From a virus: a stretch of 64,000 bases of DNA. The number at the start of each line of letters is the position of its first letter. The stretch's first letter is position 1. The notes below the pieces were generated by a model. That model worked only from the letters and a program-made list of their open reading frames with translations. It did no database searches and was not told the DNA's origin. The position numbers were made by a program, and so were the translations under genes. The stretch lies in IMG/VR virus record IMGVR_UViG_3300005264_000001, positions 28,962 to 92,961 of that record; one strand, written 5' to 3'. This document shows, in pieces, positions 4,807-62,572 of this stretch.

Positions 4807-4817
4807 AAAGACTTATA
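4807..4817 (+). promoter_or_regulatory. early-class BRE+TATA promoter (AAAGACTTATAAA)
   Basis: TATA ends about 21 nt before the ATG at 4841; more than 15 copies of the motif in the window. Confidence 0.75.
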
Positions 4818-4840
4818 AAGACTAGAACATTAATAATATT

Positions 4841-7194: not shown

Positions 7195-7761
7195 ATGGTT
7201 AAATTAATAAAAACATATAAAGGTTTTGAGGTGTATGCATCTCGAGTAGAACAAGATGAAGGAGAGAAAGGTAATGTGTACTTTTTATCGAGCATAAGTA
7301 TACCTAAGAAGCACCCTAGGTATAACACTAAGAATCCATATTTTACAGATGCTGATTTTAATAATGAAGAATATGAGATTGATACATATAGAATTGGGGA
7401 TGTTTGGGGACAAGCAAAGAAATACATTAATAAATTCTTATTAACAAATAAAACAACTACTAAAGAAAGATTGGAAATGTTAAGTGAGAGATTAAATTCA
7501 AATGATTTTAAATTTAAACTTGAATTATCAAGAGAAGGAAAAGATATCTTAAATAAAAAGATTAGTGCTGTTAAAGAACCTGAAGTATTTAAAAAGATAT
7601 CAAATATGAGTAAAGCTATATTTAAAGATGAAGAATCAATCAAGAAGATACCAAATCTAGTATCAGCTTATTTGAAAGGTTCTAGAAAAATGATTGTATT
7701 AGAATTTTTCACAAAAGACAAGAAAAGATATCCAATAACTTATAATATTAAAGAATTATAA
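7195..7761 (+). CDS. hypothetical protein
   Basis: 188-aa ORF with TTTATAAA about 24 nt upstream. Confidence 0.65.
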   Translation: MVKLIKTYKGFEVYASRVEQDEGEKGNVYFLSSISIPKKHPRYNTKNPYFTDADFNNEEYEIDTYRIGDVWGQAKKYINKFLLTNKTTTKERLEMLSERLNSNDFKFKLELSREGKDILNKKISAVKEPEVFKKISNMSKAIFKDEESIKKIPNLVSAYLKGSRKMIVLEFFTKDKKRYPITYNIKEL

Positions 7762-7831
7762 TTTATAAATCTTTATAAACAACAACTAATTTTATCGAAA
7801 GACTTATAAAGGAGTAAGTATTACTATTATT

Positions 7832-12145: not shown

Positions 12146-13492
12146 TTAGTTTACCTCCAATGTAATATATGATTTGTTTACAGCGTAAAATGGTGCAATC
12201 TTTACAATCCATTTAACTGCGTCTGCTCCGTCAACATCTTCTGATTGTGTTGGTAAGAACGCTTTTAGTAATTCGTTACTAACTAAACCACTTAGAATGT
12301 TATCCATTGACATAGCGTGTTTAATTCTATTTTTTGTACTATCAGGACTTCCTAAGATTTGTTCATCTGAATAATTTTGTAATAGTTGTTTAACTGAATA
12401 TACAATATCTGTAATTACTTGTTCAAATGCTGGACTTGTCTTATCACTAAAACTTGTTATAGCTCTTGATACTTTAAATACATTTTGATATTTTCCAAAT
12501 GGGATTAATCCAATACTTAAATAATTATCTTGTTCTAACTTAGTTAATGATTTTTCAATTCCTTCATTTTTAAATTCTTTCATTGTTGTACTTACACCTA
12601 AACCATAAAATGTTACCATTCCAGCGTAACCACAAGCAGAATATGAAGCATCTAAATGTTCAACAGCATTTGAGTTACTTTTATTTGTGTAATCACACCC
12701 AAGTGCTAATCTTGAAATCATTTCACCATTAGCTGTTCTTGCTTCAGATACTGAAAAGTCTTCTGCTAATGTAATTCCTGTATAGTATTGTGAAAATTTC
12801 TTCTCTAAATCAGCTCTCACTATTAATTTTCCTACGATTGTATTATGAAAGGCATCTGTTGTTTGTCCTGGAATCAATAATACATCATAATCAACTAAAT
12901 TTAAACTATCAACTGCTGTTAAAATTTCAGTTTCTGATGGTGCTCTATCTGTTCCTCCTGCTAATTGAGTAGTTGTGAAAGGTCTTACAAGATTATCTAC
13001 TGCACCACTTCTCACAGTTACATTAACCCATTTACTAACACTTAATTTAGTTACAAGGTCTGAATTTTTAACAACTCCTGTATAAATTTCAACTGAATTT
13101 CCAAACTTCACTGTTACGATTCCACTTACTGCGTCAATCTCAACTGTATATTTATTTCCTAATGTTCCCTCAGTAATTGCATCAAATACAACATCTCCGG
13201 ATTCCACTGATAATGTAGCTTTTGTACTTCCTGAACCGGCTACTCTTTTAAATTGTAATCCTGAACCAAAGTTACTAAAGAATTGTTTCACAGCTTTTAC
13301 TCCTGTTAAACCTCCTGTATTATCATCACTTCCAAATTTATTAGCAAAATCACTTTCTCCAGTGATTGGTGTTAATTCATCTATAATTCCTGAATTAGCA
13401 GTTCCTAACATAATTGTTTTTCTTGTACTAACTCCTTGCGCCAGACTTTGTAAAAAGACTGTACTTATTTTTGTTTCTGGTAAATATTCCAT
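12146..13492 (-). CDS. contractile tail sheath protein
   Basis: A..EG..GN.Y.VEI and LAGGTD motifs; C-terminal KIAPFYAVNKSYITL. Confidence 0.85.
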   Translation of the reverse strand: MEYLPETKISTVFLQSLAQGVSTRKTIMLGTANSGIIDELTPITGESDFANKFGSDDNTGGLTGVKAVKQFFSNFGSGLQFKRVAGSGSTKATLSVESGDVVFDAITEGTLGNKYTVEIDAVSGIVTVKFGNSVEIYTGVVKNSDLVTKLSVSKWVNVTVRSGAVDNLVRPFTTTQLAGGTDRAPSETEILTAVDSLNLVDYDVLLIPGQTTDAFHNTIVGKLIVRADLEKKFSQYYTGITLAEDFSVSEARTANGEMISRLALGCDYTNKSNSNAVEHLDASYSACGYAGMVTFYGLGVSTTMKEFKNEGIEKSLTKLEQDNYLSIGLIPFGKYQNVFKVSRAITSFSDKTSPAFEQVITDIVYSVKQLLQNYSDEQILGSPDSTKNRIKHAMSMDNILSGLVSNELLKAFLPTQSEDVDGADAVKWIVKIAPFYAVNKSYITLEVN

Positions 13493-13495
13493 TTT

Positions 13496-14107
13496 TTAAT
13501 TTTCTGTTTTTACTTCGATTCTAGAATCTGTTATTAGTTTTCCAGCAATTCCTGTAATAGGGTCTGCTTTTCCGTAAACTCTTTTCCACGTTTCCATGTA
13601 TTCAACTCTATATTGTAATCTTGATGTCCAAAAATATTTCCCGTCATCAAATGATTTCTCTTCATTAATTAAATCAAAATCATAAAAGATATCTTTCCAC
13701 TCATCTAATGTTGAATTTACAAGATAACTTACAATTCCTTTTACATATTCATTTGCTGCTTTTCCGTATATTGTGTGAACACTTTCATCTGGTAGAGTTA
13801 CAGTAACAACTTTATCTTTATTTCTATGAGTATATACCCATAGATTCATTTTTGTTCTATATCTACGTCCGTATGTTTCTTCTATGGTACCGTCTGTATT
13901 GTGTACAATACATAAAAAATTATCATCACCTACTGGAACATACTCTCCATCTTCTGAAAGTTCATATGTTACTTGTGGTAAGTTTGCCTTAGTCTCTGGA
14001 TATGTCGGATAAAACCATCTAGACCCTATATTAAAAGGGTTTGCATATTCTTTTACTAAGTCTTCCATCTTGAAGACTACATCTACATTTGTTATTCCTG
14101 TTTCCAT
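13496..14107 (-). CDS. tail terminator / neck protein
   Basis: Upstream of the sheath; YP....LP.V pattern. Confidence 0.5.
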   Translation of the reverse strand: METGITNVDVVFKMEDLVKEYANPFNIGSRWFYPTYPETKANLPQVTYELSEDGEYVPVGDDNFLCIVHNTDGTIEETYGRRYRTKMNLWVYTHRNKDKVVTVTLPDESVHTIYGKAANEYVKGIVSYLVNSTLDEWKDIFYDFDLINEEKSFDDGKYFWTSRLQYRVEYMETWKRVYGKADPITGIAGKLITDSRIEVKTEN

Positions 14108-24363: not shown

Positions 24364-24951
24364 TTAAATATATTTAATATTGTTAATAATTTCGTTCATT
24401 TTTTCCATGAACTCTTCTTTTTTCTTAGATTCTTCTGTGTTTAATTGCTCAACTGCTGACCCCTCAAAACTTTCTGCGAATACAACTTTAGCTTCTTCAA
24501 ATCCTTCACATGAGACTATCGAACATTCATTCCACGACTTTACAGTTGCTTCTCTATATGATTCTCCAGACTCTGTTTGTTTATTTAATGCTTGACCGTT
24601 AATGTTAAGACTAACTCTTAACTCACTTGCGTTTCTTAAATACTCAATTAAACTCTCGTTATATTTTGTATCATAAATCTTTGCTGTACCATATAATCCG
24701 TCTTCCTTACCCTCAACAGATAACCAATGCCCTACTGGTAATGAATGGTCTGAAGTTTTGTGATTGTACATAACATTCTTACCGATTAACTCATTAGCTT
24801 TTTCTAAGATTGACTCTTTATTATACAATACACCGTTTCTTGAAGTTTTATGAAAAGGAACAATCATACCTGAGATTGTCTTATCTTTTGCTTCATTAGC
24901 TTCAGAAAATACTGTATCTATACTAAGGTTTTTGTTTTTAATATCAACCAT
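24364..24951 (-). CDS. prohead protease
   Basis: SRNGVLY, MYNH, PVG, VS and ECSIV motifs. Confidence 0.85.
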   Translation of the reverse strand: MVDIKNKNLSIDTVFSEANEAKDKTISGMIVPFHKTSRNGVLYNKESILEKANELIGKNVMYNHKTSDHSLPVGHWLSVEGKEDGLYGTAKIYDTKYNESLIEYLRNASELRVSLNINGQALNKQTESGESYREATVKSWNECSIVSCEGFEEAKVVFAESFEGSAVEQLNTEESKKKEEFMEKMNEIINNIKYI

Positions 24952-24992
24952 AGAATAATATTATTATTATTTGTTTTTAAATATATTTAGAA

Positions 24993-25997
24993 TTAGTAAA
25001 TGACCTTCTGGTCATCATTTATAATTACAAATCCACAATTAAGTTCTTTAATTATATTATTCATTCTTATTTCATCTTTCTTCATTTGCTTCTCACTACT
25101 TCTGTGATAACACTCATTAACTTCATATACAACATTATTAACTTCATCATAACCATCTACGAAATATCGTAATACTTGATATTGTCTTGTAATGTTTATA
25201 TCTAGTTTATATTCAATCATATCTAAAGCAGCTGTTTCGTTCCTACCAATCATTGGAGAAAAAGAAACACTCTTTAAACCATACTTTCTTATATGTTCAG
25301 TAATAGCTTTACTTCTCCTTAAAGAAGTCAATTCTTTTTGTTCTTTAGTTCTGTTTTTTAAAGTTTCTTTAAACTTTCTAACTCTAGATAATTCTTGTTT
25401 TATAGTTAAACTTTTTCTATGCTGTCTCATAAATATACTTTGTCTTTTAGACATTTGTTGTCTTGTCTCATCAGACATATTCTCATTGACTTTCTTTCTA
25501 GCCTCACTTTGATTTTTAAAAACATCAGCTTTCTTTTCATCACTCCAATTTTTCATAGTTTCTTTTCTTTTATTAGCAATTTCTTTCTTTTGTTCAGGAG
25601 TTAAACTGTTAAGCCAAGCATTATGTGTTACTCTATATCTTTCCCTCATTTCTTTAGTATGTACTCTATTCCTTAATAATTCACTTCTATCAGCACTCAT
25701 CTTTTCCTTAGCTTCGTGTGACATATTTTCAAGACCTACAAACAATCTATCTATTTTTGCTTGTCTTTCCTCATCAGAAATAGTTTTATTATAGGCTGTC
25801 ATACCTTTACTTTGACTACTTTTGAATTCTTTTGAGTTACAGAATGCTCTTCTTTTTTCACTCATTATATCTATGTTTGGAAAATTAATTATATACTCTG
25901 GTACACTTGTATTATGTGTTTTTAGGTGTCTAGTAGTAATTTGTTTAAATTCTCTATTACAAATCTCACATGTAACTTTATCTTTTAACTCTTTCAT
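24993..25997 (-). CDS. putative homing endonuclease (C2H2 Zn finger, basic repeats, Vsr/DUF559-like nuclease)
   Basis: CEIC...HLKTH at the N-terminus; RQY...YFVDGYD...VYEV.E..H at the C-terminus. Confidence 0.7.
   Translation of the reverse strand: MKELKDKVTCEICNREFKQITTRHLKTHNTSVPEYIINFPNIDIMSEKRRAFCNSKEFKSSQSKGMTAYNKTISDEERQAKIDRLFVGLENMSHEAKEKMSADRSELLRNRVHTKEMRERYRVTHNAWLNSLTPEQKKEIANKRKETMKNWSDEKKADVFKNQSEARKKVNENMSDETRQQMSKRQSIFMRQHRKSLTIKQELSRVRKFKETLKNRTKEQKELTSLRRSKAITEHIRKYGLKSVSFSPMIGRNETAALDMIEYKLDINITRQYQVLRYFVDGYDEVNNVVYEVNECYHRSSEKQMKKDEIRMNNIIKELNCGFVIINDDQKVIY
24997..25085. repeat. 89-bp direct repeat, copy 1 (copy 2 at 28866-28954)
   Basis: Identical sequence at the 3' ends of the two endonuclease genes. 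Confidence 0.9.
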
Positions 25998-26059: not shown

Positions 26060-26572
26060 TTAAAAAGGTAATGTGTAAGGTTTATCTAAGTTAATAGATA
26101 AAAATAATTCAAATGCTCTTTTTTGAAATGTAAAATGTTTACCATTAAATAATTTAATCATTTCATCTTTAATAGGTTTAGATAAACAATTAATCATTAA
26201 TTGAATAAATTCTTCTTTTGATTTTTTAATACCCTCATGAAACTCGCTGTCTATTGTGTACTCATAACCACCTTTAACATGAAAGATTTTACTTCTTTTT
26301 TCATGAACTAGTTTTAAATATGTTGTGTGGTCTTCTGTACTCATATTGTAAGCTTCACTTGGTTCTGTAATTCTCAAATGTTCTTCACCTTCAAATGCAG
26401 ACATATAAACATTATCTTTTAGAATTTGTAATTTGTATTCATTCTCTCTTTCAACTATAGCATCTCTGACACTTGATTGATTAAGATAAGAATCTCTTGC
26501 GTTTCTTAATTTTATACTTGCTGTTTGAACTCCTTCTTTTAATTGGCTTATCATTTCGTTTTTAGTTACCAT
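26060..26572 (-). CDS. hypothetical protein (early cassette)
   Basis: Early promoter sharing 35 bp with the one before the DNA ligase. Confidence 0.7.
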   Translation of the reverse strand: MVTKNEMISQLKEGVQTASIKLRNARDSYLNQSSVRDAIVERENEYKLQILKDNVYMSAFEGEEHLRITEPSEAYNMSTEDHTTYLKLVHEKRSKIFHVKGGYEYTIDSEFHEGIKKSKEEFIQLMINCLSKPIKDEMIKLFNGKHFTFQKRAFELFLSINLDKPYTLPF

Positions 26573-26638
26573 ACTAATAGTAATACTCTTTAGTTTATAA
26601 GTCTTTCGATAATTTAGAATAGTGTTTATAAAGATAAA

Positions 26639-27688
26639 TTATTTTATTAATACTAAGAACTCTTTTCTTACATTAATACTAAATTCTTCTCCTTTTTCCA
26701 AAGAGTCAAACTTTGATTCATATTTTGAGAATACTTTTTCGACTGAGCGTTTGATATCTCTCAATTTATAATCCTTTTGAAATTCTTGGGCTAAACTTTG
26801 ATAACATACAGCGACTAGTTCAGATAAAGATTTGCTATGCATAGCAAATCCAGAGTACTTAAAAAAATATTTCTTACCTGGTGCATCTTTTCTTTTTATA
26901 GACACAGTATTTATAGTAGATAATTTTTCTTTAAATCCATCTTGTAATCTTTCGATTAAATTTTTAAGTCTTTCGTTTGTTTCTTTATAACTCAAATTAT
27001 GTTGGTCAAATACAGATTTTAATTTCTTATCAAATCCTTTAACTTTAACATTATTTCTCTTTTTCCATAATCCGTTTAATACACCTGCTCTCTTAGTCTT
27101 TTTTAAACTTCCTATATGTTTGTTTAGTGACTTAAAGAAGAGTCTTATAAACGTCTTAGAAACGGGTCTAAATGAACTATTAGCACCATTACTAACGAAT
27201 GTAGCAAAGTCTGCAATATCTTTTGTTAATTCTTTCTTTTGTTTGTCATTTAGTTCAGCACCTGGGACTGGTTTATATAAATAATCATGTGATAGTTCAT
27301 AAGCCACAGTATGTAAGAATGTTCTTACTTGTACTTCTACTTGTCCTAAATTGTGTTGAACAACTCCTGCGTAGTCAGGTCTAGGATTTACAATGTAATC
27401 TGATGTAGTTGTAATTAAGTCTTTGAATATCTCTTTAATTCGACCGGCAATCACTTTATATCTACTCATGTTATCAATGTGAATTCTAAATCCAAATAAA
27501 TCTCCTAAATCTTCTAATTTTCTATATTTATCAGGTTTGGTTTTAATTTTGTTTAATGCTGAGTTTAAATCTTTTGCTCTATAAGTATAAGTAGTACCGT
27601 CTAATTTTCCTAATCTTTTTCTAATCTCTGGAATAATTGTAGAGTTTAGATTTTTCATCAATTTATCATAATCCTTCTTATTCGCCAT
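26639..27688 (-). CDS. RelA/SpoT-domain small alarmone synthetase (SAS/toxSAS-like) with C-terminal extension
   Basis: RAKDLNSALNK, DLFGFRI, DYIVNPRPDY and EVQVRT...H..LYK motifs. Confidence 0.85.
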   Translation of the reverse strand: MANKKDYDKLMKNLNSTIIPEIRKRLGKLDGTTYTYRAKDLNSALNKIKTKPDKYRKLEDLGDLFGFRIHIDNMSRYKVIAGRIKEIFKDLITTTSDYIVNPRPDYAGVVQHNLGQVEVQVRTFLHTVAYELSHDYLYKPVPGAELNDKQKKELTKDIADFATFVSNGANSSFRPVSKTFIRLFFKSLNKHIGSLKKTKRAGVLNGLWKKRNNVKVKGFDKKLKSVFDQHNLSYKETNERLKNLIERLQDGFKEKLSTINTVSIKRKDAPGKKYFFKYSGFAMHSKSLSELVAVCYQSLAQEFQKDYKLRDIKRSVEKVFSKYESKFDSLEKGEEFSINVRKEFLVLIK

Positions 27689-27965
27689 CTTTACAACATT
27701 CTATATATTCTTTTATTAACTCTTGACTATCACTAGCAAATTCTGGGTAGATTGTACTAATAGTAGCAATAGCTTCCTCTTTTGTAAATGCTGAAGTAGT
27801 TAATACTTCACTATTACAATCATCTTTGTTTTCCAAAGTTTCTTTAAACACACCAGCGTTATTGTAATCCATTGCTTCCTCAAATGAGTCGAATGATTCA
27901 CAACTTACTAATTCTCCTGTTTTCATATTCTTAGTGAATACAAAACTAAATTCTTTCTTTTCCAT
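27678..27965 (-). CDS. small acidic protein, candidate antitoxin/immunity protein of the SAS
   Basis: Late promoter upstream; overlaps the SAS start by 11 nt; function inferred. Confidence 0.5.
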   Translation of the reverse strand: MEKKEFSFVFTKNMKTGELVSCESFDSFEEAMDYNNAGVFKETLENKDDCNSEVLTTSAFTKEEAIATISTIYPEFASDSQELIKEYIECCKDGE

Positions 27966-28044
27966 TTTATTTAATATAGTAAAGTAATATAAATATTACT
28001 TTTTAAATATATTTTACATACTTAATCGTTTCTTGTTGAAATAC

Positions 28045-28504: not shown

Positions 28505-28572
28505 CTTATAATAATAGTAATACTTACTCCTTTATAAGTCTTTCGATAAAATTAGTTGTTGTTTATAAAGAG

Positions 28573-28854
28573 TTATAAATTTCTTTCGAATTCTATCTCT
28601 TCCAATGTAGATTGTTTTGTTTTATATTCGAGTGCTCGTGCTGTTAAGCCTCTTCCTTTTCTTGTTTCTACATCACTGTAATATGTTTTTAATAGTTTTG
28701 CAGCATTTGCTGACATTTGAGAAGTTAAATTAAAGTGTTTTGCTATATCCTCTCTTCTTGTCCAATCTTTACAGAATAGAAGTAAATTATTTATACTTCC
28801 AATTCTTTCAGTCCATGACCCACCCTCAGGATTAGGTTGTTTTATCTTTTCCAT
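28573..28854 (-). CDS. putative winged-HTH DNA-binding protein
   Basis: TRREDIAKHFNLT HTH-like pattern. Confidence 0.5.
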   Translation of the reverse strand: MEKIKQPNPEGGSWTERIGSINNLLLFCKDWTRREDIAKHFNLTSQMSANAAKLLKTYYSDVETRKGRGLTARALEYKTKQSTLEEIEFERNL

Positions 28855-28858
28855 TTTA

Positions 28859-29812
28859 TTATTCATAAATGACCTTCTGGTCATCATTTATAATTACAAA
28901 TCCACAATTAAGTTCTTTAATTATATTATTCATTCTTATTTCATCTTTCTTCATATTCTTAGGTCTCCTATGATGATTTTCATATACTTCATATACAACA
29001 TTGTTAATCTCATCATAGCCATCTACAAAATACTGTAAAATAGGAAATTGTCTTGTAATGTTTATATTAAGTTTACTTTCCATCATATCTAAAGCTTTTG
29101 TTTCATTCTTACCAATATTTGGCAAGAACTCTTTTCCATTTATTTTTCTATGTTTTTTAAAATATTCTATTGCAGATTTTCTAATTTTTTCTTTCCATTC
29201 ACTTTTTACTTCTGGTGTCATCTGATTGTGAACATTTTTTGAATGTTCTGAAAAATCAAAAGTAGACTTAGCCAATGCTTCTTTTGTTTGTTTAGCCAAC
29301 TCTCTTCTTCTTTCTACTGGTGTGTTTTCCCAAGCTTTCTTTTGTGACTTACTCAACTTTTTCAAAGACTCTTCACTCCACTCATATCCCATGTGTACTT
29401 TAGACATATGTTCTCTATGCCCTGGTCTTTTCCATACCTCTAATTGTCCTTTTGACATAGACTTTTTCCATGCTCCAATATCTTTTGGTTTATTCCATAT
29501 ACCTTTCATAGTTATACTTTTCTTCTCACCGGCTATTCTGAGACTTTCACAAGTCTCTTTAGTTAGTCCTTTATGCCAAGCACACTTCTTTTTTAGTTCC
29601 TTGGCTTTTTTCTTTCCATGTATTTCTTCAAAAGTTTTACCCTTAATGGTGTTTCCATAACAATTTTCGGATAATAATTTTCTAGTGTTATCACTAAGTA
29701 AATTAGAGTTTGGAAATTTTTCTTTATAATATTCTATTGTAGTGTTGTGTCTTTTTAAGTGAGTATTTGTAATACTCTTAAATTCTTTACCACAAATTTT
29801 ACATTCTACCAT
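28859..29812 (-). CDS. putative homing endonuclease, paralogue of 24993-25997
   Basis: Same Zn finger and nuclease C-terminus; NUMOD3-like repeats. Confidence 0.7.
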   Translation of the reverse strand: MVECKICGKEFKSITNTHLKRHNTTIEYYKEKFPNSNLLSDNTRKLLSENCYGNTIKGKTFEEIHGKKKAKELKKKCAWHKGLTKETCESLRIAGEKKSITMKGIWNKPKDIGAWKKSMSKGQLEVWKRPGHREHMSKVHMGYEWSEESLKKLSKSQKKAWENTPVERRRELAKQTKEALAKSTFDFSEHSKNVHNQMTPEVKSEWKEKIRKSAIEYFKKHRKINGKEFLPNIGKNETKALDMMESKLNINITRQFPILQYFVDGYDEINNVVYEVYENHHRRPKNMKKDEIRMNNIIKELNCGFVIINDDQKVIYE

Positions 29813-29871: not shown

Positions 29872-32316
29872 TCACTCATAAGGAATCCAAGAACACCTAC
29901 ATCCCCACTCATCAGTGATTAAAGGTTTTTTACCACTTAATAAGTCATCAATTAAAAACACATGTTTGTTAAGTTTCCTGTGGGAATTCCTAACTTTTTC
30001 GTCACGCCTCGTTCTGAGCTGTGCTCGAGTTAAGCCCAAATTTTTCCACTTTCTAAGTTTAATGATTGAACCAGCTGTTCTTGCTCCTTTCTTTATTACA
30101 ACATCAAATCTATTTACAATTCCACTCTTGTAATCATACTTTGTTCTAATCTGGTTTTTAATATCTTTAACATCAACACCACGTCCAACCATATCAGCTA
30201 TATCAGACATTACCATCTGTGAAACATTGTTTTTTGTTTGTTCTACACTTTGTAGTATAACGTCTTGCATGAGTCTCTGCTTGTCTGAGATGGTCTTTTC
30301 TCCTTTCTTGATAACTTTGTCGTGAGCTTCATTATCTACTCTAGGAATCGTTCCTACTTCGTTATTTACTATGATGTTGTGTTTAGTTAAGGCTCTCCCA
30401 ACACTTCTGTTTATTCTACTACCAAATATATTAAATTTCTTCTTTAATCCAGGGAAAAATGTATCACTCAAAAATCCTTCAGTTAAACATACAGGTATTT
30501 CTGTATTTAGACTTTCTTTTATTTTCTCTTTTTTATCTAACATAGAAATTATATCATCAATAAGAGTATTCCAATCTTTTTCAACATCATCTCCTACTCC
30601 ATCTAAAAGTTTGTCCTCTTCTGATTCTTCATCATCAAAGATTTCTTGTTCATCTAAAAGATGTTTAATTAAAGCATCATAAGTTTCTTTAGCTTGACTT
30701 ACACCTTCATCTACTCTTTCTACTTTATGTAATAGTAGGGATTGAAAAATTAAATAAGAATTTTCATCTTTAATTAATCTAACTACTATTCCTCCAATGT
30801 CCCTCTTACTGAGTTCTTTTGACTTGGAGGATAAACTAAAACCTGTTTTGTTATTTAGTTTATTTACTCTTTTACTAAATTCTTCATATGATTCATTACC
30901 ACCTAAACTTTCTGAAAATCCTTTTAAACTTTCTGTTTCATTAGTTTCTTTAGGAAGGTTTTTAGTATCTAATTCGATACCTTCAAACACTCCTAATTTA
31001 TTATAATAATCTACAATTTGCTCTCTTGTAATTACTCCTTGATTAATTAAACTATCAACTAAACTTGTATAGTCTTGAACGTTTCCACTTAATTGAGGTG
31101 TGTCAAATACAAATGTAGCATTAAATGGTACATTTTCTTTACCAAAATCTTTTCTTAATCTAGATAAGATAATTTCATTTAGATATTTTACAAGTGCTCC
31201 TTGTCTACTTTTCAATCTTAACATAAAAGCCGGCATTGCTTGTTCACTTCCCATTGTTGTAGCACTATCTGACCAAGGTGTTAAGTGTTGTGGTAATAAA
31301 CTCATAACAAGCATTCTTCTAACTAAATCAAACACTCCTTCCAATGTATCATAATTTCCACTTACTTTAATATCTTGTTCTAACATCTTTAGTGGGTAAG
31401 GTAAAATCTTAAAGGAACTTCCAGTATCAGCTAATTTGTCTTCAATATCTTCTTGAACTGGTTTACTCATTTGAAAACCTTTTCCATCTTTATCAAGTGT
31501 CATAATCTTTTGGTCAATAGCTTTATTTCTTGCGATTGTATCCCATGCTCCTATAATAGATGAATATACATTGAATGCATCAATTCCTGAAGCTAAAATA
31601 CTTCTACCATAAACATTATCACTTGAAAATCCTGTTGTTCTTAAATCCATTTCACCGTCTGAGATGTATACACCATATATTGTAAATCTCATAAATACAT
31701 TATTCTTAATATATCCTACTTGTATTTGTGTTGGTGTTTTAACTTTACCAGCGAACTTAAAACTAGTTTGTCCTTGTGGTGTCATTAAAATATATTTTTT
31801 TGAACCATCTTCATCTTCTAAATTTACAAATATACGAGACATATCATTATATGTTCCAATACCATTAAAGTATGTTTTACCATCATCTCCTTTCTTATAG
31901 AAGAATTGAACAGGTGCATTTCCAAAAATAGTGTTAGCTGTTTCCATTTGTTTAACTTCCTCAAGTAACCAACCTCTAGCATCTAACCAATCATTGATAA
32001 AATCTTCTGCCTTATCATTACCCTCAACAACAACTCTTAAATTATCATTTGAAATCAACATATCATTATACTGATTGATACCAGTTGATACAAGTGGACA
32101 AGTATTATACATTTCTAATTGTCTAATAAACTCATAATGAGGTGTTCTATCTTCTCCTTTATCTGTAACTCCTGGAGAGAATGTAAACGCACCTAAATCT
32201 GCTAGGTTTGTTATTTTAGTCTCCATGTTATTATTTTCCTTTATTGCTTCACTTATAAATACATCTCTATAAGTTAACGGTGCGGATTCTTTTATATCTT
32301 CTTTTATTGTTTCCAT
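29872..32316 (-). CDS. portal protein fused to MuF/SPP1 gp7-like head morphogenesis domain
   Basis: TIFGNA and YGRSILA portal motifs; C-terminal RTRRDEKVRNSH...GCRCS MuF motif. Confidence 0.8.
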   Translation of the reverse strand: METIKEDIKESAPLTYRDVFISEAIKENNNMETKITNLADLGAFTFSPGVTDKGEDRTPHYEFIRQLEMYNTCPLVSTGINQYNDMLISNDNLRVVVEGNDKAEDFINDWLDARGWLLEEVKQMETANTIFGNAPVQFFYKKGDDGKTYFNGIGTYNDMSRIFVNLEDEDGSKKYILMTPQGQTSFKFAGKVKTPTQIQVGYIKNNVFMRFTIYGVYISDGEMDLRTTGFSSDNVYGRSILASGIDAFNVYSSIIGAWDTIARNKAIDQKIMTLDKDGKGFQMSKPVQEDIEDKLADTGSSFKILPYPLKMLEQDIKVSGNYDTLEGVFDLVRRMLVMSLLPQHLTPWSDSATTMGSEQAMPAFMLRLKSRQGALVKYLNEIILSRLRKDFGKENVPFNATFVFDTPQLSGNVQDYTSLVDSLINQGVITREQIVDYYNKLGVFEGIELDTKNLPKETNETESLKGFSESLGGNESYEEFSKRVNKLNNKTGFSLSSKSKELSKRDIGGIVVRLIKDENSYLIFQSLLLHKVERVDEGVSQAKETYDALIKHLLDEQEIFDDEESEEDKLLDGVGDDVEKDWNTLIDDIISMLDKKEKIKESLNTEIPVCLTEGFLSDTFFPGLKKKFNIFGSRINRSVGRALTKHNIIVNNEVGTIPRVDNEAHDKVIKKGEKTISDKQRLMQDVILQSVEQTKNNVSQMVMSDIADMVGRGVDVKDIKNQIRTKYDYKSGIVNRFDVVIKKGARTAGSIIKLRKWKNLGLTRAQLRTRRDEKVRNSHRKLNKHVFLIDDLLSGKKPLITDEWGCRCSWIPYE

Positions 32317-39120: not shown

Positions 39121-39420
39121 TTATAAAGATTTGTATTTAAACCCATAAATATATTTAGATGAACTCTTTGAATTTTCCCAATTATCACAAGTACGATATT
39201 GTCTTACTTTGCTAATATTATTTGCTTTATTAAATTCCTCAATCTTGTCTTCAGGAAGTGTTATTTTTCTCTTATGTGAAATTACAATTAAATATCTACA
39301 TCCCATTATCACCTCAAAATTAAAATATAATCTTTCAAAAAATGTATAGTTGATATTAAAATACTTACATATATCTTCAGGAGTTATTTCAACAATTTCC
39401 TCTATCTTAATCTTAGCCAT
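39121..39420 (-). CDS. hypothetical protein
   Basis: TAATG coupling to rtcB; its stop is the TATA of the next promoter. Confidence 0.55.
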   Translation of the reverse strand: MAKIKIEEIVEITPEDICKYFNINYTFFERLYFNFEVIMGCRYLIVISHKRKITLPEDKIEEFNKANNISKVRQYRTCDNWENSKSSSKYIYGFKYKSL

Positions 39421-40538
39421 TATGCTTTTATATTAAGCACAGGCTTAACCCTCCTTAAAATAGTCGCTGTTGGTTCAATAGCGTCTTCAATTACTTTTGC
39501 ATCTTTATAAGCATTAGGTGCCTCGTCAAGAGTACTTTGTGATATACTTGTACTATACACATTAGCATCTTTCATTTGAGTTTGAAATTCTTCTAAACTT
39601 AATTCTCTCTTAGCTTTTGCTCTTGAATACAATCTACCAGCTCCATGTGGTGCTGAATTATTCCAATCAGGATTACTTTTACCTTCACAAATTAAAAGAC
39701 CATCCTTCATATTAAAAGGTATAACCATTTTCTCACCTACGTATGAACGAATAGCTCCCTTTCTAATAATACCATCTCTAAAATCCATAAAGTTATGAAC
39801 TGAGGATATACGTTCTGTTTCATGTACAACTTTAAAATCAAACACTTCTTTTAACATAATATTTATCATTTCTACTCTATTTAAATCAGCATATTCTTGA
39901 GCGATTGACATATCATACAAATAATCTGAACTATCTTCCTCAGATAAGAACGCTAACTCTTTACAAGTTTGAGTTTTATCTGTTTCAATAGCTATCTTTT
40001 GCCAATAGTCACAAACTTCTTTACCAAATCTTCTACTTCCTGAATGTACAGTCAACCAATAGTCACCAGTCTCATCTTTACCTAACTCAATAAAGTGATT
40101 ACCACCTCCAAGTGTTCCAATTTGTTTTAGTACATTACTTGTCTCTAATTTATTAATCTTCTTACAAATTAAATCAATTTGTCCATAAGTTCCCATATTT
40201 ACATTTGTTTCTTTTTCCTTACTCTTAAATCCAAGTGGTACATATTTTCTAATTAAAATATCTGTGTCTTTTAAGGTCAATGGTATATGTTTACCTATAT
40301 TTACAGATAGAACCCCACATCCGATATCTACAGATATCACGTTGGGACAAACTCTCTTTCCTATTGGACAAGTAAATCCAATAACACTACCTTTCCCCAA
40401 ATGACAGTCAGGCATTACTTTAATAGGAACATCTTTGAAATGTTCTACATTACAGAGACTTTGTATTTGTGAGTAAGTCGCTGCGTCAATATCTTCTGTC
40501 ATTACTTTTGCTGTGTTGTATTTTCCTTTAATTTCCAT
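39420..40538 (-). CDS. rtcB: RtcB RNA ligase
   Basis: MPDCHLGKG, VDIGCG, GTLGGGNHFIE, HSGSR, HN, RKGA, SAPHGAGR and DEAPNAYK motifs. Confidence 0.95.
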   Translation of the reverse strand: MEIKGKYNTAKVMTEDIDAATYSQIQSLCNVEHFKDVPIKVMPDCHLGKGSVIGFTCPIGKRVCPNVISVDIGCGVLSVNIGKHIPLTLKDTDILIRKYVPLGFKSKEKETNVNMGTYGQIDLICKKINKLETSNVLKQIGTLGGGNHFIELGKDETGDYWLTVHSGSRRFGKEVCDYWQKIAIETDKTQTCKELAFLSEEDSSDYLYDMSIAQEYADLNRVEMINIMLKEVFDFKVVHETERISSVHNFMDFRDGIIRKGAIRSYVGEKMVIPFNMKDGLLICEGKSNPDWNNSAPHGAGRLYSRAKAKRELSLEEFQTQMKDANVYSTSISQSTLDEAPNAYKDAKVIEDAIEPTATILRRVKPVLNIKA

Positions 40539-42287: not shown

Positions 42288-42698
42288 TCATTCTTCTTTA
42301 TCCTCTTTGTTATGATATAAATCTATATTTTTAATGTTCTTACTTTTTAACCAATCATCATGTGCTTTCCAAAACAATTCCTCGTTTAATTTTAATGCTA
42401 CTTGTATTGCTCCATTATTAAGTGCGTGATTTTTATTAGATATTCTTTGTTCTTCATCTATTCTCTTTTTCCACTTTTCCTCAAATGTTAAATCATCTTC
42501 TTTATCTACTAAATTTTCTTTTACAAATTGACCTAATTCAAAAGCCTTTTCTGCAATCCTTCTTATATAAAAGTCCTCATCTTCTTTAAATTGGAATGAA
42601 CTTCCAAATAGATATTTTTTAAAACCAAATAAACCTTTAGTTTCAAATAAATCATTGTTTGTTAATTCAAATATCTCGTCTTTATTTAATTTTCTCAT
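42288..42698 (-). CDS. hypothetical protein
   Basis: ATGA-coupled ORF. Confidence 0.55.
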   Translation of the reverse strand: MRKLNKDEIFELTNNDLFETKGLFGFKKYLFGSSFQFKEDEDFYIRRIAEKAFELGQFVKENLVDKEDDLTFEEKWKKRIDEEQRISNKNHALNNGAIQVALKLNEELFWKAHDDWLKSKNIKNIDLYHNKEDKEE

Positions 42699-44089
42699 TC
42701 GTCTAACCCTCTATGAATAGTAACAAATTCTTTTAATTTTTCAAATTCATTCTCAATTTCACCATCACAAACCATTTCAAATAATGGTTCTAAGATTTCT
42801 TTAAACTCTGGACCTGGTTTCATACCCAGCGCAATTAAATCTTTACCTCCAAATTTCATATCCCCAATTTTAAAAGGTGTTTCTTTTTCTTTCAATTCGT
42901 AAAACTTCTTAATTATTTTGTTACCGGCATTAAATATTTCTAAACCTGTAACTTTCTCAAAAACTTTAACTACACTTTCACTTAGTTTAATTGGATTCTT
43001 CTTTTTATTTCCATGACAATCACAAAAGATAAGACTTCCTAATTCTTCAACAGTTACACCATTTTCTTCTAGTTCATTAAATAATTTAATATAAGTATTG
43101 GTTTTAATTGGATTACCTTCAATCATATATCCAAACATATGTCTTCTAATTAAACAATGAACATAATTAATTTCTTCAGTACTTGCTCCAAGATGTTTCA
43201 ACATATATTTCTTCATCAAACTTGCACCTTCTTTTTCATGACCATAAAAATGTGTACCTGTAACAAAATCATGTGTTCTAGTTCTAGCTTTTCCAATATC
43301 ATGAAATAAAGCACTCATAATAAATAAAGGATTATTTGAAATCTTTTGAGCTTCTTGCATTGTATAAATACAGTGTTCTCTTGGTGTTTCGTCATGAAAA
43401 TCTCCACCATCCATTTCCATTTCAGTTCTAAACCAAGTTAAAGGAAACATCTCACTAGCCCAGTATTTAATATGTTTCTCTTTTAAATAAGGTAATACTT
43501 TTTTAAATGAAATCCAAGTTCTTTCTTTTGCAACTCCACTAGTGTCAAACTCTTCAATAGCTTTTAATGTTTCTTCTTCAATATCAAAGCCTAATCTATC
43601 AGCTTGTTCTAAGTATCTGAAATATCTCCCATCATCTTCATTTAATCTATCTCTGGGTTCTCCAACAGCTCTTACAATTTTATCTCTAATATCTTCTAAC
43701 CCTTGGTAATTAAACGCATTACTAGAATGTATAATTCCATCACTTTTACAACATATACAATTCATAAACGCGTCGCAGGTTGCTTGATGTTCAAAAATAT
43801 CATTTCCAACTTCTTTTCTATCACCACTATTTCTATATTGAGAAATTTCTGTATCATCTACGATTACAGTTAGAATCTTTTCTTGTCTTTCTTCTCCACC
43901 AATAACTTTACCTTGTGGAAATACTTTTAGAATATCTGAACAATTTGTAAAGAGGTCAAAATCATGTGGTTCTATCTCTAATAAACTATCACGAATTGCA
44001 CCACCTATCAAAAATACCTCGAAACCTTCAGCTTCAAGTGTCTTCATCATGTCTTTAACTTTGTTTGGTATTACGATTTTTTTCATCAT
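42695..44089 (-). CDS. cca: class II tRNA nucleotidyltransferase (CCA-type) with HD domain
   Basis: GGAIRD...DFDL, EDDGRYFR, LFHDIGK, HFYGHE and GKDLIALG.KPGP motifs. Confidence 0.85.
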   Translation of the reverse strand: MMKKIVIPNKVKDMMKTLEAEGFEVFLIGGAIRDSLLEIEPHDFDLFTNCSDILKVFPQGKVIGGEERQEKILTVIVDDTEISQYRNSGDRKEVGNDIFEHQATCDAFMNCICCKSDGIIHSSNAFNYQGLEDIRDKIVRAVGEPRDRLNEDDGRYFRYLEQADRLGFDIEEETLKAIEEFDTSGVAKERTWISFKKVLPYLKEKHIKYWASEMFPLTWFRTEMEMDGGDFHDETPREHCIYTMQEAQKISNNPLFIMSALFHDIGKARTRTHDFVTGTHFYGHEKEGASLMKKYMLKHLGASTEEINYVHCLIRRHMFGYMIEGNPIKTNTYIKLFNELEENGVTVEELGSLIFCDCHGNKKKNPIKLSESVVKVFEKVTGLEIFNAGNKIIKKFYELKEKETPFKIGDMKFGGKDLIALGMKPGPEFKEILEPLFEMVCDGEIENEFEKLKEFVTIHRGLDE

Positions 44090-44274
44090 AATAATAATAA
44101 TGTTCTATTGTTTATAAGTCTTTGCTTTTCTAATCTTATCACAACTAATACACTTATATTTTACAGGTACTTCATGTTGTGGTCTAACACCACCCCAATA
44201 AACAACTCTGAACTCTCCACACGTACACAGAGTATCTAAATTAATTATCTCTTTCCCGATTAATTCACTTTTCA

Positions 44275-45967: not shown

Positions 45968-47143
45968 CTAGATTACAATTTTAAGAATCGTAACACCTTG
46001 TTCTTTAGGTACATTTATATAAGCAGGGTCTCCTTTAACGTCATATCCAACAATTCCATCAGTGTTTTGTAAATCTACTCTCATTCCTTCAACATCATTT
46101 CCAATGATAAACATATTTTGTGATGCACGAGAAGATAAGTTCAAACCTTTATCAGCATATGGATTACTTCCAACAAGACTACCAGCACGAGCAAAGAAGT
46201 CACTAATTAAACAACTATGGATATGTCCAAATAAAATATAATCTATTTTAATTCCTTGTATACTGTATTTAGCTATAATCTTTTGAATTGAACCCTCAGG
46301 ATTCTTTTGTATACTTGTACCATGAGTTAGTAGAATATTATGACCATTAATACAAATAACTTTCTCAGATAACCCACCTTTGATAAAATTTACTCTATCA
46401 TCTTTTACAAATAAGTGTTCCAACATATTATCTAAACAATAATCTAAATTGTTTGAAAGTAAAATATCACTATGACCCATTTCTTTATCAATTCTTGATT
46501 CATTACCACAAACACTTACAACATCAACCATAAATCCACGTGAAGTTAAATCATTTATAATTTGACTAATCATAGAAGTACCTAACAACAATGATTGCAT
46601 AATATTGTGAGAATTAGTCAAAAGTTCATCAGTTCTACGTGGAGAATTAAACATATCACCAGTCATAGCAATTACAATTTTTTCGACTCCTGACTCTAAA
46701 AACTTCTCTCTTGATTTACTTACAAATTTCTTTAATCTCTTTCCAGCTACTTCCCAATCGTATGTGTTCATATCACTCTTCACACACTCACCAAAGTGTA
46801 AATCACTTAATTGTATAATACCAATCTTACAGTCTTGTTTTCTCTTGAATCTGACGTCCTTAGGTAGCTTAAAATCGAAATAGTCACCACCAATAGCATC
46901 TAATTTTTTAATTAAGGAAGAATTCATCTCAATCAAAGCATTATCTTTTCTAAATGCTTCTCGTGAAATTTTATTTGCGACTCTGTTTTTATCCATAAGT
47001 CCTTGTCTACTTTTAGCTAATTTAACTAAATCCAAGTCAACTGACCATTGAAAATTACATTCTTTACAAAGATATCGTTGCTTATTATTTCTTGTTCCTC
47101 TTTTGATAACATGATGTCCAAAACATCTATTACATTCATTCAT
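45968..47143 (-). CDS. calcineurin-like metallophosphoesterase with N-terminal Zn ribbon
   Basis: SDLH, GD, GNE, THG and GHIH motifs; CxxC...CxxC. Confidence 0.8.
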   Translation of the reverse strand: MNECNRCFGHHVIKRGTRNNKQRYLCKECNFQWSVDLDLVKLAKSRQGLMDKNRVANKISREAFRKDNALIEMNSSLIKKLDAIGGDYFDFKLPKDVRFKRKQDCKIGIIQLSDLHFGECVKSDMNTYDWEVAGKRLKKFVSKSREKFLESGVEKIVIAMTGDMFNSPRRTDELLTNSHNIMQSLLLGTSMISQIINDLTSRGFMVDVVSVCGNESRIDKEMGHSDILLSNNLDYCLDNMLEHLFVKDDRVNFIKGGLSEKVICINGHNILLTHGTSIQKNPEGSIQKIIAKYSIQGIKIDYILFGHIHSCLISDFFARAGSLVGSNPYADKGLNLSSRASQNMFIIGNDVEGMRVDLQNTDGIVGYDVKGDPAYINVPKEQGVTILKIVI

Positions 47144-47988: not shown

Positions 47989-48075
47989 TACCTTGTACGG
48001 GATTTGAACCCGTGACCTCTCCGCAACATTAGCTAAATGTCTATGGGATGCTCTACCAAACTAAGCTAACAAGAC
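47989..48075 (-). ncRNA. tRNA-like RNA with extended anticodon arm
   Basis: GTCTTGT/ACAAGGT acceptor, D arm, ACGGG-TTCAAAT-CCCGT T arm; 30 nt in place of the 17-nt anticodon arm. Confidence 0.65.
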
Positions 48076-48378: not shown

Positions 48379-48455
48379 TTAAAAGAGTGAGAATCGAACT
48401 CACGTCTACAAAGATTTTCCATCCCTGCCACATTTCCATAGTATGCTACCTTTTC
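48379..48455 (-). ncRNA. tRNA-like RNA with 8-bp anticodon stem and 5-nt loop
   Basis: GTGAG-TTCGATT-CTCAC T arm; GCAGGGAT-GGAAA-ATCTTTGT arm. Confidence 0.6.
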
Positions 48456-48470
48456 ATTATATTATTTTAT

Positions 48471-48581
48471 CGAAGTCGGGTAGATTACGAACTACCATCT
48501 TGGCTTAACCCCAAAGTCTTTAAGTACTAATTATCACTTTGTTGATGTTAAGTTGCTCTACGTATATTGAGCTACGTCCCC
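48471..48581 (-). ncRNA. tRNA-like RNA with long insert in the anticodon arm
   Basis: GCTC/GAGC D stem, GGTAG/CTACC T stem; nested CTTAAC/GTTAAG and CAAAGT/ACTTTG helices. Confidence 0.6.
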
Positions 48582-52704: not shown

Positions 52705-53484
52705 TTAATCAAACACCTTCTTATATTTATTTATGTTCTCACAATATTCTTCATAACTAATCTCTTCTAAATTAGACCTATCCCAACGATTATAGCTTAT
52801 TTCTACTTGTCCATCATATTTTTTATGACCATACTTACTAAAACTAAACATAGATGAATATACACTCCAAGTATCAAACTGAATTCTATCAATTTTACAT
52901 ACTCCTAAAATGTCAGCACATTCCTCTTCCTCATAATACTCATCATCTTTATCAACTAAAACTCTAAAATATTTACCATAGTATTTCTCATTTAGTTTTT
53001 CAAATTTTTCTTTCTTTTCAATAATAAAATATTGATTACTTCTACTCAATTTCTCTACATCAACTGTAACGTCATCCAGAGAACCACATTTCTCTAAAAT
53101 CTTTTCAAAACAAATCTTTTTCTTAGTTTCAAATTCTTCAGGTTCTATAACTTTTCCTTGTCTTACATTACCATCTCTTAGACTAGTATTCTCAGAATTA
53201 CTAAAATCAAAGTTGTCTCCTCTAACATCTAATCTCTCACAATCACATCTTACAGTATCACTGTCAAAAGAAGCCTCAGGTTTAAAATATAATTTAGTAA
53301 TCTTAATAATACTACCTGAACCATCATTGAACACATTCTTATAATAGAACGGTAATTTAGTATTTTCCCATCTTTCTATCATACGTTTACAATCAGCTTT
53401 TCTTCTTAAATCACTATCATTTCTTTCTGCTGCTTTCTCTTCTTGTAATCTTACCTTTGTTTTTTCTATATTTTTAAATTCCAT
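52705..53484 (-). CDS. hypothetical protein
   Basis: TAATG-coupled to the hydrolase gene. Confidence 0.6.
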   Translation of the reverse strand: MEFKNIEKTKVRLQEEKAAERNDSDLRRKADCKRMIERWENTKLPFYYKNVFNDGSGSIIKITKLYFKPEASFDSDTVRCDCERLDVRGDNFDFSNSENTSLRDGNVRQGKVIEPEEFETKKKICFEKILEKCGSLDDVTVDVEKLSRSNQYFIIEKKEKFEKLNEKYYGKYFRVLVDKDDEYYEEEECADILGVCKIDRIQFDTWSVYSSMFSFSKYGHKKYDGQVEISYNRWDRSNLEEISYEEYCENINKYKKVFD

Positions 53485-53921
53485 TATTCACTCCTCCAGA
53501 ATTTACTTTTAGTTAAATAAGCATCTTGTCTTTTTTCATCCCAAACACTCATTGTACTTAGATTTTGAGCTCTATCACAAAATTTAATCATAATAGCTTC
53601 AGGTGATTCAAGTCTAGGAAATGTTTTCTCTCCATTTTCATTCTTATCTTTAGTCAATTCTAAAACAAGATTTCTAACTCTTAACCCAAACATTTGAAAT
53701 AACTGTAAAGGAGTTACATCACAATCTTCTAATACGTCATGTAAATAAGCCGCAGCAATTATATTTTCATTATCAGTTAATCCAGCAACCATATCTCCAA
53801 CTACTTTTACATGGGTCTCATAATAACTTTGCCCACCGTCTCTTAATTGTCCTTTATGCATCTCTTGTGCAAAATCTTGTGCTTTCTCAACCATACTTTG
53901 TGTTATAATCATACTTTCCAT
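53484..53921 (-). CDS. Mesh1/SpoT-type HD small alarmone hydrolase (SAH)
   Basis: A...HKGQLR, Y..H, AAAYLHDVLED, V..LTKD and IKFCDRAQN motifs. Confidence 0.9.
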   Translation of the reverse strand: MESMIITQSMVEKAQDFAQEMHKGQLRDGGQSYYETHVKVVGDMVAGLTDNENIIAAAYLHDVLEDCDVTPLQLFQMFGLRVRNLVLELTKDKNENGEKTFPRLESPEAIMIKFCDRAQNLSTMSVWDEKRQDAYLTKSKFWRSE

Positions 53922-54199: not shown

Positions 54200-54270
54200 C
54201 TTATAATAATACTAATACTTAATCCTTTATAAGTGTTTGTATAGAATAAAACATAGATTTATAAATAAAT

Positions 54271-61906: not shown

Positions 61907-61929
61907 ATATAAACATATTTATATTTATT

Positions 61930-62500: not shown

Positions 62501-62572
62501 AGTCCTTTGGTGTATCAGGAAACACGTAGGTCTTTGGAACCTTCACGGGGAGTTCGAGACTCTCAGGGACTA
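62501..62572 (+). tRNA. tRNA-Gln(UUG), A1:U72, no encoded CCA
   Basis: Full cloverleaf AGTCCTT/AGGGACT; loop CT-TTG-GA. Confidence 0.9.

Follow-up and report, generated by a model that had tools for sequence, protein, structure and literature searches.

A 64,000-nt stretch of viral DNA (hereafter the window; bases 28,962-92,961 of the 92,961-bp IMG/VR virus record IMGVR_UViG_3300005264_000001) was found to encode, among its head genes, a stand-alone and catalytically competent-looking enzyme of the RelA/SpoT homologue (RSH) family, here termed SAS for small alarmone synthetase. RSH synthetases, toxSAS toxins, and MuF-borne (p)ppApp synthetases are known from bacteria and their phages; the virus described here probably infects an archaeon. 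SAS is the second gene of a two-gene operon that starts with a small acidic open reading frame (ORF95), and a small alarmone hydrolase (SAH) is encoded elsewhere in the window, as the initial annotation of this DNA had assumed. The reading that we favor, and to which we give an even chance, is that SAS may serve as a toxSAS-like effector or cargo, with ORF95 as its binding inhibitor and SAH as its hydrolase antidote, by analogy with the Apk2-IapK-Aph1 system. The three genes are as follows:

26639-27688, minus strand: SAS, stand-alone RelA/SpoT-family pyrophosphokinase, 349 aa, assigned by Pfam, motifs, and fold.
27678-27965, minus strand: ORF95, 95-aa acidic orphan encoded by the first cistron, which may inhibit or chaperone SAS (candidate role).
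53484-53921, minus strand: SAH, 145 aa, HD_4 domain (Pfam HD_4, 46.2 bits) with H..HD..ED..D..N motifs.

The Pfam model RelA_SpoT (PF04607) matched residues 37-139 of SAS at 42.3 bits (E 1e-10; gathering cut-off, 27 bits) and at 44.1 bits in a six-frame search, and weak hits were also obtained to long RelA/SpoT models and to solved Rel enzymes, in each case to their synthetase part. Motifs were read from an alignment of SAS with 29 other proteins recovered by an exhaustive search (n = 30). The residues of syn1 (ATP phosphates; R37-x-K39...S43...K47...K51), syn2 (the Mg2+ Asp; D63-L-x-G66-x-R68), and syn5 (H134...Y138-K139), together with P102 of the G-loop region (D97-Y-I..P102...Y106), were found on invariant or near-invariant columns. 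Y106, the G-loop Tyr that stacks on the acceptor base, is invariant in the 30 aligned sequences, and the catalytic Glu-x-Gln of syn4 is retained (E118-V-Q120-V-R122-T123), with E118, Q120, and T123 likewise on invariant or near-invariant columns. All synthetase motifs named in the initial annotation were thus recovered on conserved columns, and its description of a stand-alone RelA/SpoT synthetase holds, as the protein starts with the synthetase domain, is unfused, and has its catalytic set intact. The AlphaFold2 model (predicted local distance difference test score [pLDDT] of 85-95 across residues 1-190) was matched by Foldseek at a probability of 1.0 to 5DED, 6FGK, 6EWZ, 2BE3, 7ZTB, and 1VJ7, which represent RelQ, RelP, Rel, and CapRel. 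The best superpositions of the catalytic domain were on RelQ/SAS1 and RelP/SAS2 (5DED, 6EWZ, and 6FGK; template modeling [TM] score by target 0.55-0.66, root mean square deviation [rmsd] 3.9-6 Å); the top full-length match was CapRel, but at an rmsd of 23 Å. Fold searches of BFVD returned viral RelA/SpoT folds, some of which reside inside phage proteins of at least 1,000 aa annotated with other domains. Based on the Pfam score, the aligned motifs, and the fold, the RelA_SpoT match is not a product of chance, and SAS is by its sequence a member of the RSH synthetase superfamily that appears catalytically competent. As such, it would be expected to move pyrophosphate from ATP onto a 3′-OH.

The syn3 motif of SAS reads Y106-A-G108-V-V110, and the S-x-H that follows the G-loop Tyr is missing, a point not raised in the initial annotation. 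This motif is Y-A-G-V-T in the closest relative (P0002, see below), while the remaining 28 homologues keep Y-R/x-S-x-H. In (p)ppGpp synthetases, the S-x-H after the G-loop Tyr serves guanosine recognition (PMC12226406). Because this guanosine-reading element is lost, we tentatively rank an adenosine nucleotide (yielding (pp)pApp and depleting ATP) or a tRNA 3′-CCA end above GDP/GTP as the acceptor; published syn-motif swaps failed to switch acceptor specificity (PMC12226406). Fewer basic residues are found near the G-loop Tyr of SAS than in its relatives, and a similar loss is seen in the tRNA-modifying FaRel2 (PMC11782079). The synthetase domain (approximately residues 1-170) is followed by a basic C-terminal half with no assigned fold, and the protein as a whole is basic (isoelectric point [pI] 9.8). 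The C-terminal half was modeled at a pLDDT of 59. When residues 176-349 were compared with the ESM Atlas, the best feature score was 0.76 and every TM-score was below 0.5. When this half was compared with 48,161 chains by VIA-align, the best Z was 5.3, which is in the chance range, and no pseudo-zinc-finger protein was listed.

An exhaustive search of 1.84 billion representative proteins gave 30 hits at E ≤ 1e-3, of which one was close. This protein, P0002, is a 148-aa fragment on a 1.5-kb contig with 52% identity to residues 92-237 of SAS, and Y106, E118, Q120, H134, Y138, and K139 are all identical between the two. Conservation between SAS and P0002 was found to run beyond the catalytic core up to residue 236; the C-terminal half is thus constrained, at least in its first part. 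A word-index search with SAS matched SAS alone, and a related-locus search of viral and metagenome contigs (queried with SAS, an alignment, P0003, and P0008) found nothing. The other homologues are 240-430 aa in length with the synthetase domain at the C-terminus, and at least 2 of the 30 are portal proteins that end in this domain. These portal-fused relatives (P0008/P0032, named 'HK97 family phage portal protein', P0011, and P0014) share 31-38% identity with the SAS domain over about 120-150 residues. When P0008 was compared with a portal protein from a metagenome (L139:10001-12223), the two were 94% identical over residues 1-486 and then diverged totally, with the L139 portal ending in a MuF-like region (...PPFHVNCRCVVE) and P0008 in a RelA/SpoT synthetase domain. 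Judged from this swap, synthetase and MuF domains appear interchangeable as cargo at the inner portal end, such that portal C-termini would act like polymorphic-toxin carriers. Searching the PDB with the 30-sequence profile gave matches to Rel, RelA, RelP, and RelQ (E 1e-31 to 1e-22), CapRel (2e-13), and FaRel2 (3e-6); the Tas1/Apk1 chain (6OX6) was absent among the matches listed, and PADLOC gave no RSH hit for SAS. By this comparison of family-profile PDB matches, SAS was assigned to none of the validated toxSAS subfamilies.

The promoter region of the operon was examined together with that of the gene that follows it, and the following elements were identified:

28000-28013, minus strand: late-class promoter-like motif M1, AATATATTTAAAAA, exact copy, 34 nt upstream of the ORF95 start.
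27983-28000: perfect 8+8 palindrome, AGTAATAT-TT-ATATTACT, read directly from the sequence, between M1 and ORF95.
26594-26606, minus strand: promoter motif M2, AAAGACTTATAAA, belonging to ORF170, the gene that follows, with 21 nt between the motif and its ATG.

The window holds 12 exact copies of M1 (0.05 expected), every one of them on the minus strand, and the copy at 28000-28013 coincides with the late promoter that had been placed at about 28000-28014. The motif is limited to the structural-gene half (window 1.7-48 kb), with none in the replication arm. It precedes a 582-aa ORF (4-1752, at the window edge), the genes for baseplate J and the prohead protease, a scaffold-like gene, a 612-aa ORF, a portal-adjacent endonuclease-like gene, and ORF95. 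The gap from M1 to these other structural-block genes is 21-23 nt and once 34 nt, the latter spacing being found only for the ORF95-SAS operon and the scaffold-like gene. M2 was detected in 14 exact copies in the window (e.g., 4807-4819, 26594-26606, 44111-44123, and 61895-61907), compared with 0.06 expected, and in about 35 copies in the whole genome when up to two mismatches were allowed. It precedes replication, tRNA-repair, and small genes at a distance of 21-22 nt from the ATG (23 of 28 cases), and the genes neighboring the ORF95-SAS pair carry M2. The ORF95 and SAS reading frames share 11 nt (ATGGCGAATAA) with no promoter motif between them, and the M2 copy at 26594-26606 sets the 3′ limit of the two-gene operon. 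With M1 upstream, no internal motif, and a next gene that has its own M2, ORF95-SAS is, by promoter motif, a late-class bicistron. This agrees with the late two-gene operon of the head module in the initial annotation, given its position between the portal-MuF and protease genes, and the overlapping upstream acidic ORF of 95 aa was likewise found as described (27678-27965, minus strand, 11-nt overlap, pI 4.2). The overlap suggests translational coupling, and the palindrome is a candidate operator or leader hairpin. A promoter cassette consisting of M2 and its flanks, with a second TTTATAAA just upstream, was also observed to be duplicated at 7760-7831 (plus strand) and 28505-28585 (minus strand), and a third copy of 74% similarity was located at 26571-26648.

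The accessory cassette that holds SAS comprises six genes and is flanked by the portal-MuF ORF and the prohead protease gene. The boundaries of this cassette are:

29872-32316, minus strand: portal-MuF fusion, 814 aa (Phage_Mu_F, 26 bits, residues 702-810), ending 2.2 kb upstream of SAS.
28859-29812, minus strand: zinc-finger and endonuclease-like gene, behind an M1 motif, bracketing the cassette.
24993-25997, minus strand: zinc-finger and Vsr-like endonuclease-like gene, paralogue of 28859-29812, bracketing the cassette.
24364-24951, minus strand: prohead serine protease (Peptidase_S78, 23.7 bits), with M1 at 24974-24987; lower boundary of the cassette.

The end of the portal-MuF ORF thus confirms the distance of about 2 kb that had been given. 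Its Phage_Mu_F match is slightly below the 29.6-bit cut-off, PHROG assigned it to head morphogenesis with a weak portal hit, and its portal part had no PDB sequence match. The two endonuclease-like paralogues have an N-terminal C2H2/Ros-MucR-like zinc finger and a DUF559/Vsr-like region at the C-terminus; at the amino-acid level they are 38% identical, with the final 106 nt of the genes 94% identical, and may be homing-endonuclease-like elements or recombination substrates.

ORF95 and SAS differ widely in charge (pI 4.2 versus 9.8). The coding-frame codon score of ORF95 was 0.56, compared with 0.48-0.54 for long viral genes, and codon usage in SAS is likewise long-gene-like. ORF95 had no Pfam, PHROG, PADLOC, or PDB sequence hit and no homologue in 5.8 billion proteins. 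When the complex of SAS and ORF95 was predicted, the median score was 0.54 (runs of 0.22, 0.54, and 0.78), and the best of three controls scored 0.01. The runs shared at least 18% of contacts, with an ORF95 pLDDT of at least 62. For calibration, among 80 solved complexes 58 attained the score mark, as did 2 of 110 mismatched pairs; passes at 0.60 or less came from only 7 of the 80 solved complexes and from both mismatches. The models thus hint that ORF95 may bind SAS.

The catalytic motifs of SAH were found to be intact, and its PDB matches include Rel hydrolase domains (1e-15), SAHs, Mesh1, and the (p)ppApp hydrolase 7smg. The gene is the second in an operon behind an M2-like motif (54226-54238) and, because of this motif, is assigned by sequence to the non-late promoter class.

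The nearest relatives that are fused to portals, the location in the head block, and the late promoter together lead to the model of SAS as cargo or late effector. According to this model, SAS would be made late alongside the head proteins, and the co-translated acidic ORF95 would bind it and hold the enzyme inert while it accumulates late in infection or during assembly. SAS would then be carried in or on the capsid, as its portal-fused nearest relatives presumably are, and would act at the onset of the next infection or against competitors. SAH, expressed from a non-late, host-type promoter, would remove the SAS product and limit the effect. Packaging of SAS in the virion is suggested by analogy. 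We consider doubtful the version in which a lytic archaeal virus injects a free, head-packaged RSH pyrophosphokinase that hits the ATP pool or tRNA 3′ ends, in a host that lacks a stringent response, with an early hydrolase as off-switch and an orphan inhibitor that silences the enzyme during assembly. If true, this would be a timed, three-part, virion-delivered takeover system, toxSAS chemistry would be effective across domains, and the C-terminal half of SAS would be a new capsid-loading or target-recognition module.

Several points weigh against the cargo or effector model. SAS is fused neither to MuF nor to a portal, and no N- or C-terminal address tag common to SAS and other viral proteins was found. 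ORF95 resembles no known antitoxin or immunity family in sequence searches, and the score of its complex with SAS falls where, without a high prior, a pass is more likely to be false than true. The family profile is nearer to Rel, RelP, and RelQ than to CapRel or FaRel2, which leaves room for a non-toxic alarmone synthetase. SAH is encoded 26 kb from SAS and could simply counter a host alarmone-based defense, as many phages carry SAHs for this purpose (10.1101/575399). Furthermore, activity, toxicity, ORF95 binding, and packaging are predictions from sequence and models.

Three other explanations of the locus were considered. That SAS is a non-toxic regulatory enzyme appears unlikely: here, (p)ppGpp or pGpp made late would reprogram host metabolism or translation, with SAS unpackaged, ORF95 unrelated to it, and SAH balancing the product. 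The family profile does match best to the (p)ppGpp synthetases Rel/RelA, RelP, and RelQ (E 1e-31 to 1e-22), the syn1, syn2, syn4, and syn5 motifs are of RSH type rather than Apk2 type, and housekeeping SASs such as RelP are found in prophages (10.1101/575399). Counter to this, S-x-H is lost in both SAS and its sole close relative, P0002, the 11-nt overlap suggests that ORF95 is translationally coupled to SAS, and the complex prediction, though weak, is far above the controls. Archaea are generally not known to have RSH-based stringent control, which would leave a (p)ppGpp signal with nothing evident to receive it. We regard as similarly improbable an intracellular toxin-antitoxin or superinfection exclusion system (like Phrann gp29/gp30 or CapRel), in which ORF95 or the C-terminal half would restrain SAS until a competitor or stress releases it and infection is aborted, with no role as cargo. 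Typical toxSAS loci are overlapping bicistrons in which the partner is small and acidic (10.1101/575399), and an N-terminal synthetase followed by about 180 residues mirrors the domain order of CapRel, the top full-length Foldseek match (rmsd 23 Å). However, no integrase was found and the terminal repeats are compatible with a lytic life, which leaves no prophage state to protect; the operon bears the motif of structural (late) genes; and the C-terminal half matched no pseudo-zinc-finger or other antitoxin fold (best Z 5.3, in the chance range). Least probable of the three, and very unlikely in our view, is a SAS domain that is catalytically dead or repurposed, with the protein acting either in the head, in a structural or nucleic-acid-binding role, or as an enzyme that has the nucleotidyltransferase fold but another chemistry. 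Extreme divergence (30 hits at E ≤ 1e-3 in 1.84 billion proteins), a very basic protein (pI 9.8), and the altered syn3 would fit such a protein, yet the Mg2+ Asp, the catalytic Glu-x-Gln, the Arg and Lys residues for the ATP phosphates, and the G-loop Tyr are all retained, and from residue 92 onward the catalytic residues are identical in P0002 at 52% overall identity.

Whether the host is archaeal or bacterial was assessed from promoters, translation signals, and gene content, and an archaeal host is considered quite likely. The M1 and M2 motifs are located 21-23 nt ahead of start codons, a geometry consistent with a TATA box some 25 nt upstream of a leaderless start, as in archaeal promoters. 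Shine-Dalgarno-like sites were found in 0 of the 28 ORFs with a motif within 26 nt upstream compared with 38 of 107 others (p = 3e-5), a pattern in sequence of leaderless first cistrons and Shine-Dalgarno sites on internal cistrons. Sigma-70-type sites were not in excess (119 versus 121.6 expected), and intrinsic-terminator-like sites numbered 7 versus 2.8 expected, with just one on the coding strand of the SAS block. When IMG/VR was scanned for the exact pattern M2-N21-ATG, most hits were isolated and due to chance; in two tailed-virus contigs the pattern recurs with its gap unchanged. These two contigs have no proteins in common with the SAS virus; they encode full-length MCM (208 and 259 bits), in one case Rad51/RadA (183 bits), an HK97-type capsid protein, and a tail tube protein. 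Because unrelated MCM/RadA viruses carry M2, this motif is a host signal rather than private to the virus, those viruses have archaeal hosts, and M2 is probably the transcription factor B recognition element (BRE)/TATA promoter of an uncultured archaeal lineage with leaderless mRNAs. Two other origins of the motif were rejected: (i) a virus-encoded RNA polymerase that reads M2, as M2 is common to unrelated viruses; and (ii) a Bacteroidota-type promoter (TAnnTTTG), as about one third of internal cistrons have GAGG-type Shine-Dalgarno sites and the motif-ATG gap is fixed. One tRNA gene also bears on the host:

62501-62572, plus strand: tRNA-Gln(UUG), first pair A1-U72, A73.

The first pair of tRNA-Gln is A1-U72 in Methanothermobacter (M. 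thermautotrophicus) and U1-A72 in bacteria (PMC2811023). Thus, the earlier designation as an archaeal virus is probably correct, given the promoter geometry, the Shine-Dalgarno pattern, M2 in MCM/RadA viruses, and the A1-U72 pair of tRNA-Gln.

A bacterial host, with an ordinary phage SAS/SAH pair and motifs read by a phage factor or an unusual sigma factor, is rather unlikely on this evidence. It would account for the viral DNA polymerase, which is of family A and has its nearest matches (about 28% identity) in polymerases of Firmicutes phages; the CCA-adding enzyme, which is of class II with an HD domain; and the bacterial-type RtcB, which is 39-44% identical to RtcB of Bacteroidales, Clostridia, and Selenomonadales. 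RSH domains are, moreover, overwhelmingly bacterial, and no archaeal hallmark replication gene was detected above threshold in the SAS virus (PCNA_N, 17.8 bits versus a cut-off of 20.3). Against a bacterium stand the M2 motif with its 21-nt gap in unrelated MCM/RadA viruses, the TATA-like geometry, the lack of Shine-Dalgarno sites at motif-preceded genes while internal cistrons have them, the lack of a sigma-70-type excess, the few terminator-like sites, the A1-U72 pair of tRNA-Gln, and structural proteins that are unmatched among 50,697 phage records. The sub-threshold PCNA_N protein (237 aa) was observed directly upstream of a gp44/RFC-like clamp loader (genome 12131-13747; L002:12131-12844 and 12848-13747), and a PCNA-like protein and clamp loader beside a family A polymerase in one virus is an unusual combination.

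The DNA of this tailed virus derives from a marine-sediment metagenome and has a G+C content of about 28%. Public runs that contain the virus sequence were DNA runs of one marine-sediment study only, one of them probably the source, with no RNA runs listed. The ends of the genome are direct terminal repeats of 104 bp, which are compatible with a lytic life, and no integrase was found in a search of the genome; the virus is therefore probably lytic. The Pfam model TerL_ATPase had no match in the genome, and the putative capsid protein, the 612-aa ORF, and the portal were unmatched among the 50,697 phage records and in IMG/VR. Aside from RtcB and the CCA-adding enzyme with HD domain, an RNA ligase and three to four tRNAs are encoded, with genes located as follows:

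39420-40538: RtcB (bacterial short type).
42695-44089: class II CCA-adding enzyme with HD domain.
45968-47143: possible metallophosphoesterase.
60962-61906: RNA ligase.

This tRNA-repair-like gene set is present in a virus whose signals appear archaeal. In one tRNA gene (47989-48075, minus strand; Rfam, 41.7 bits), the anticodon arm is longer by about 14 nt; ARAGORN, in intron mode, reads the gene as Ile(AAT) interrupted at a non-canonical position by an 11-nt intron. The insertion could not be resolved as a canonical bulge-helix-bulge intron and was kept out of the evidence; the gene could have a short archaeal-type intron or be a degenerate tRNA. Beside the tRNA cluster, a weak tmRNA/tRNA-like T-arm match was detected (48386-48480, minus strand; 18 bits, less than the gathering score). 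Elsewhere in the genome (24750-25319; L003:10750-11319), a 189-aa protein was found to have a CcdA antitoxin-like N-terminus (25.7 bits).

An archaeal virus with an intact, late RSH enzyme and a matching hydrolase would show this chemistry to be a domain-independent weapon rather than an alarmone signal, with ATP depletion or the blocking of tRNA ends as the means of attack. The divergent active site (syn3 G-V-V) bears on the unsolved determinants of acceptor specificity in the family, and the two promoter classes provide a temporal map of an uncultured archaeal virus.

In the initial annotation, the locus was proposed as an undescribed system. This was overstated, as the logic of Apk2-IapK-Aph1 and of toxSAS is already published (PMC12226406, PMC11782079, 10.1101/575399). 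MuF-Apk2 toxins are paired with both a binding immunity protein and a hydrolase immunity protein (PMC12226406). As in the Apk2-IapK-Aph1 systems of temperate phages (S. pneumoniae, M. haemolytica, and P. multocida; PMC12226406), an RSH-fold pyrophosphokinase is found among head genes of the SAS virus, together with a small potential binding inhibitor and an HD-type hydrolase that may be able to destroy the product. In syn3, both enzymes have Gly instead of Ser (G-x-N in Apk2 and G-V-V in SAS), though they share nothing in this motif but the Gly. The two differ in syn2 and syn4, which are G-F-R and V-R in SAS (RSH type) compared with RYT and YH in Apk2. Unlike the MuF-Apk2 toxin, SAS has no N-terminal MuF; instead, a MuF-like domain is on the portal 2.2 kb away. 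ORF95 is upstream, an orphan, and unrelated to IapK/Tis1, and SAH is 26 kb away and in another temporal class. Furthermore, the Apk2 phages are temperate, whereas the SAS virus is probably lytic with a probable archaeal host.

Similar to the toxSAS (FaRel, FaRel2, PhRel, PhRel2, and CapRel; 10.1101/575399, PMC11782079), the locus is a small overlapping bicistron of a basic synthetase and an acidic partner, the G-loop Tyr is retained, and SAH would be a potential universal type IV antidote. However, the profile comparison does not place SAS in these groups (E-values of 2e-13 for CapRel and 3e-6 for FaRel2 versus 1e-31 for Rel), ORF95 has no pseudo-zinc-finger, Tis1, or Panacea signature in sequence searches, and the operon is, by motif, under a late viral promoter rather than a stand-by module. 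The portal-fused RelA/SpoT proteins (P0008/P0032, P0011, and P0014), which belong to uncultured tailed viruses, are near sequence relatives and late head-module proteins, but these keep Y-R-S-x-H and a C-terminal P..C...GC and are covalent to the portal, whereas SAS is free, with the domain N-terminal and an unrelated 180-aa C-terminal half. RelQ/SAS1 and RelP/SAS2 give the best structural superpositions of the catalytic domain; SAS differs from them in the loss of the guanosine S-x-H, in its viral late context, and in showing no sign of the tetramer helix or allosteric site. Overall, what sets the SAS locus apart from these systems is a probable archaeal host, a free and divergent enzyme with an unassigned C-terminal half, an orphan partner, and a temporal split between synthetase and hydrolase.

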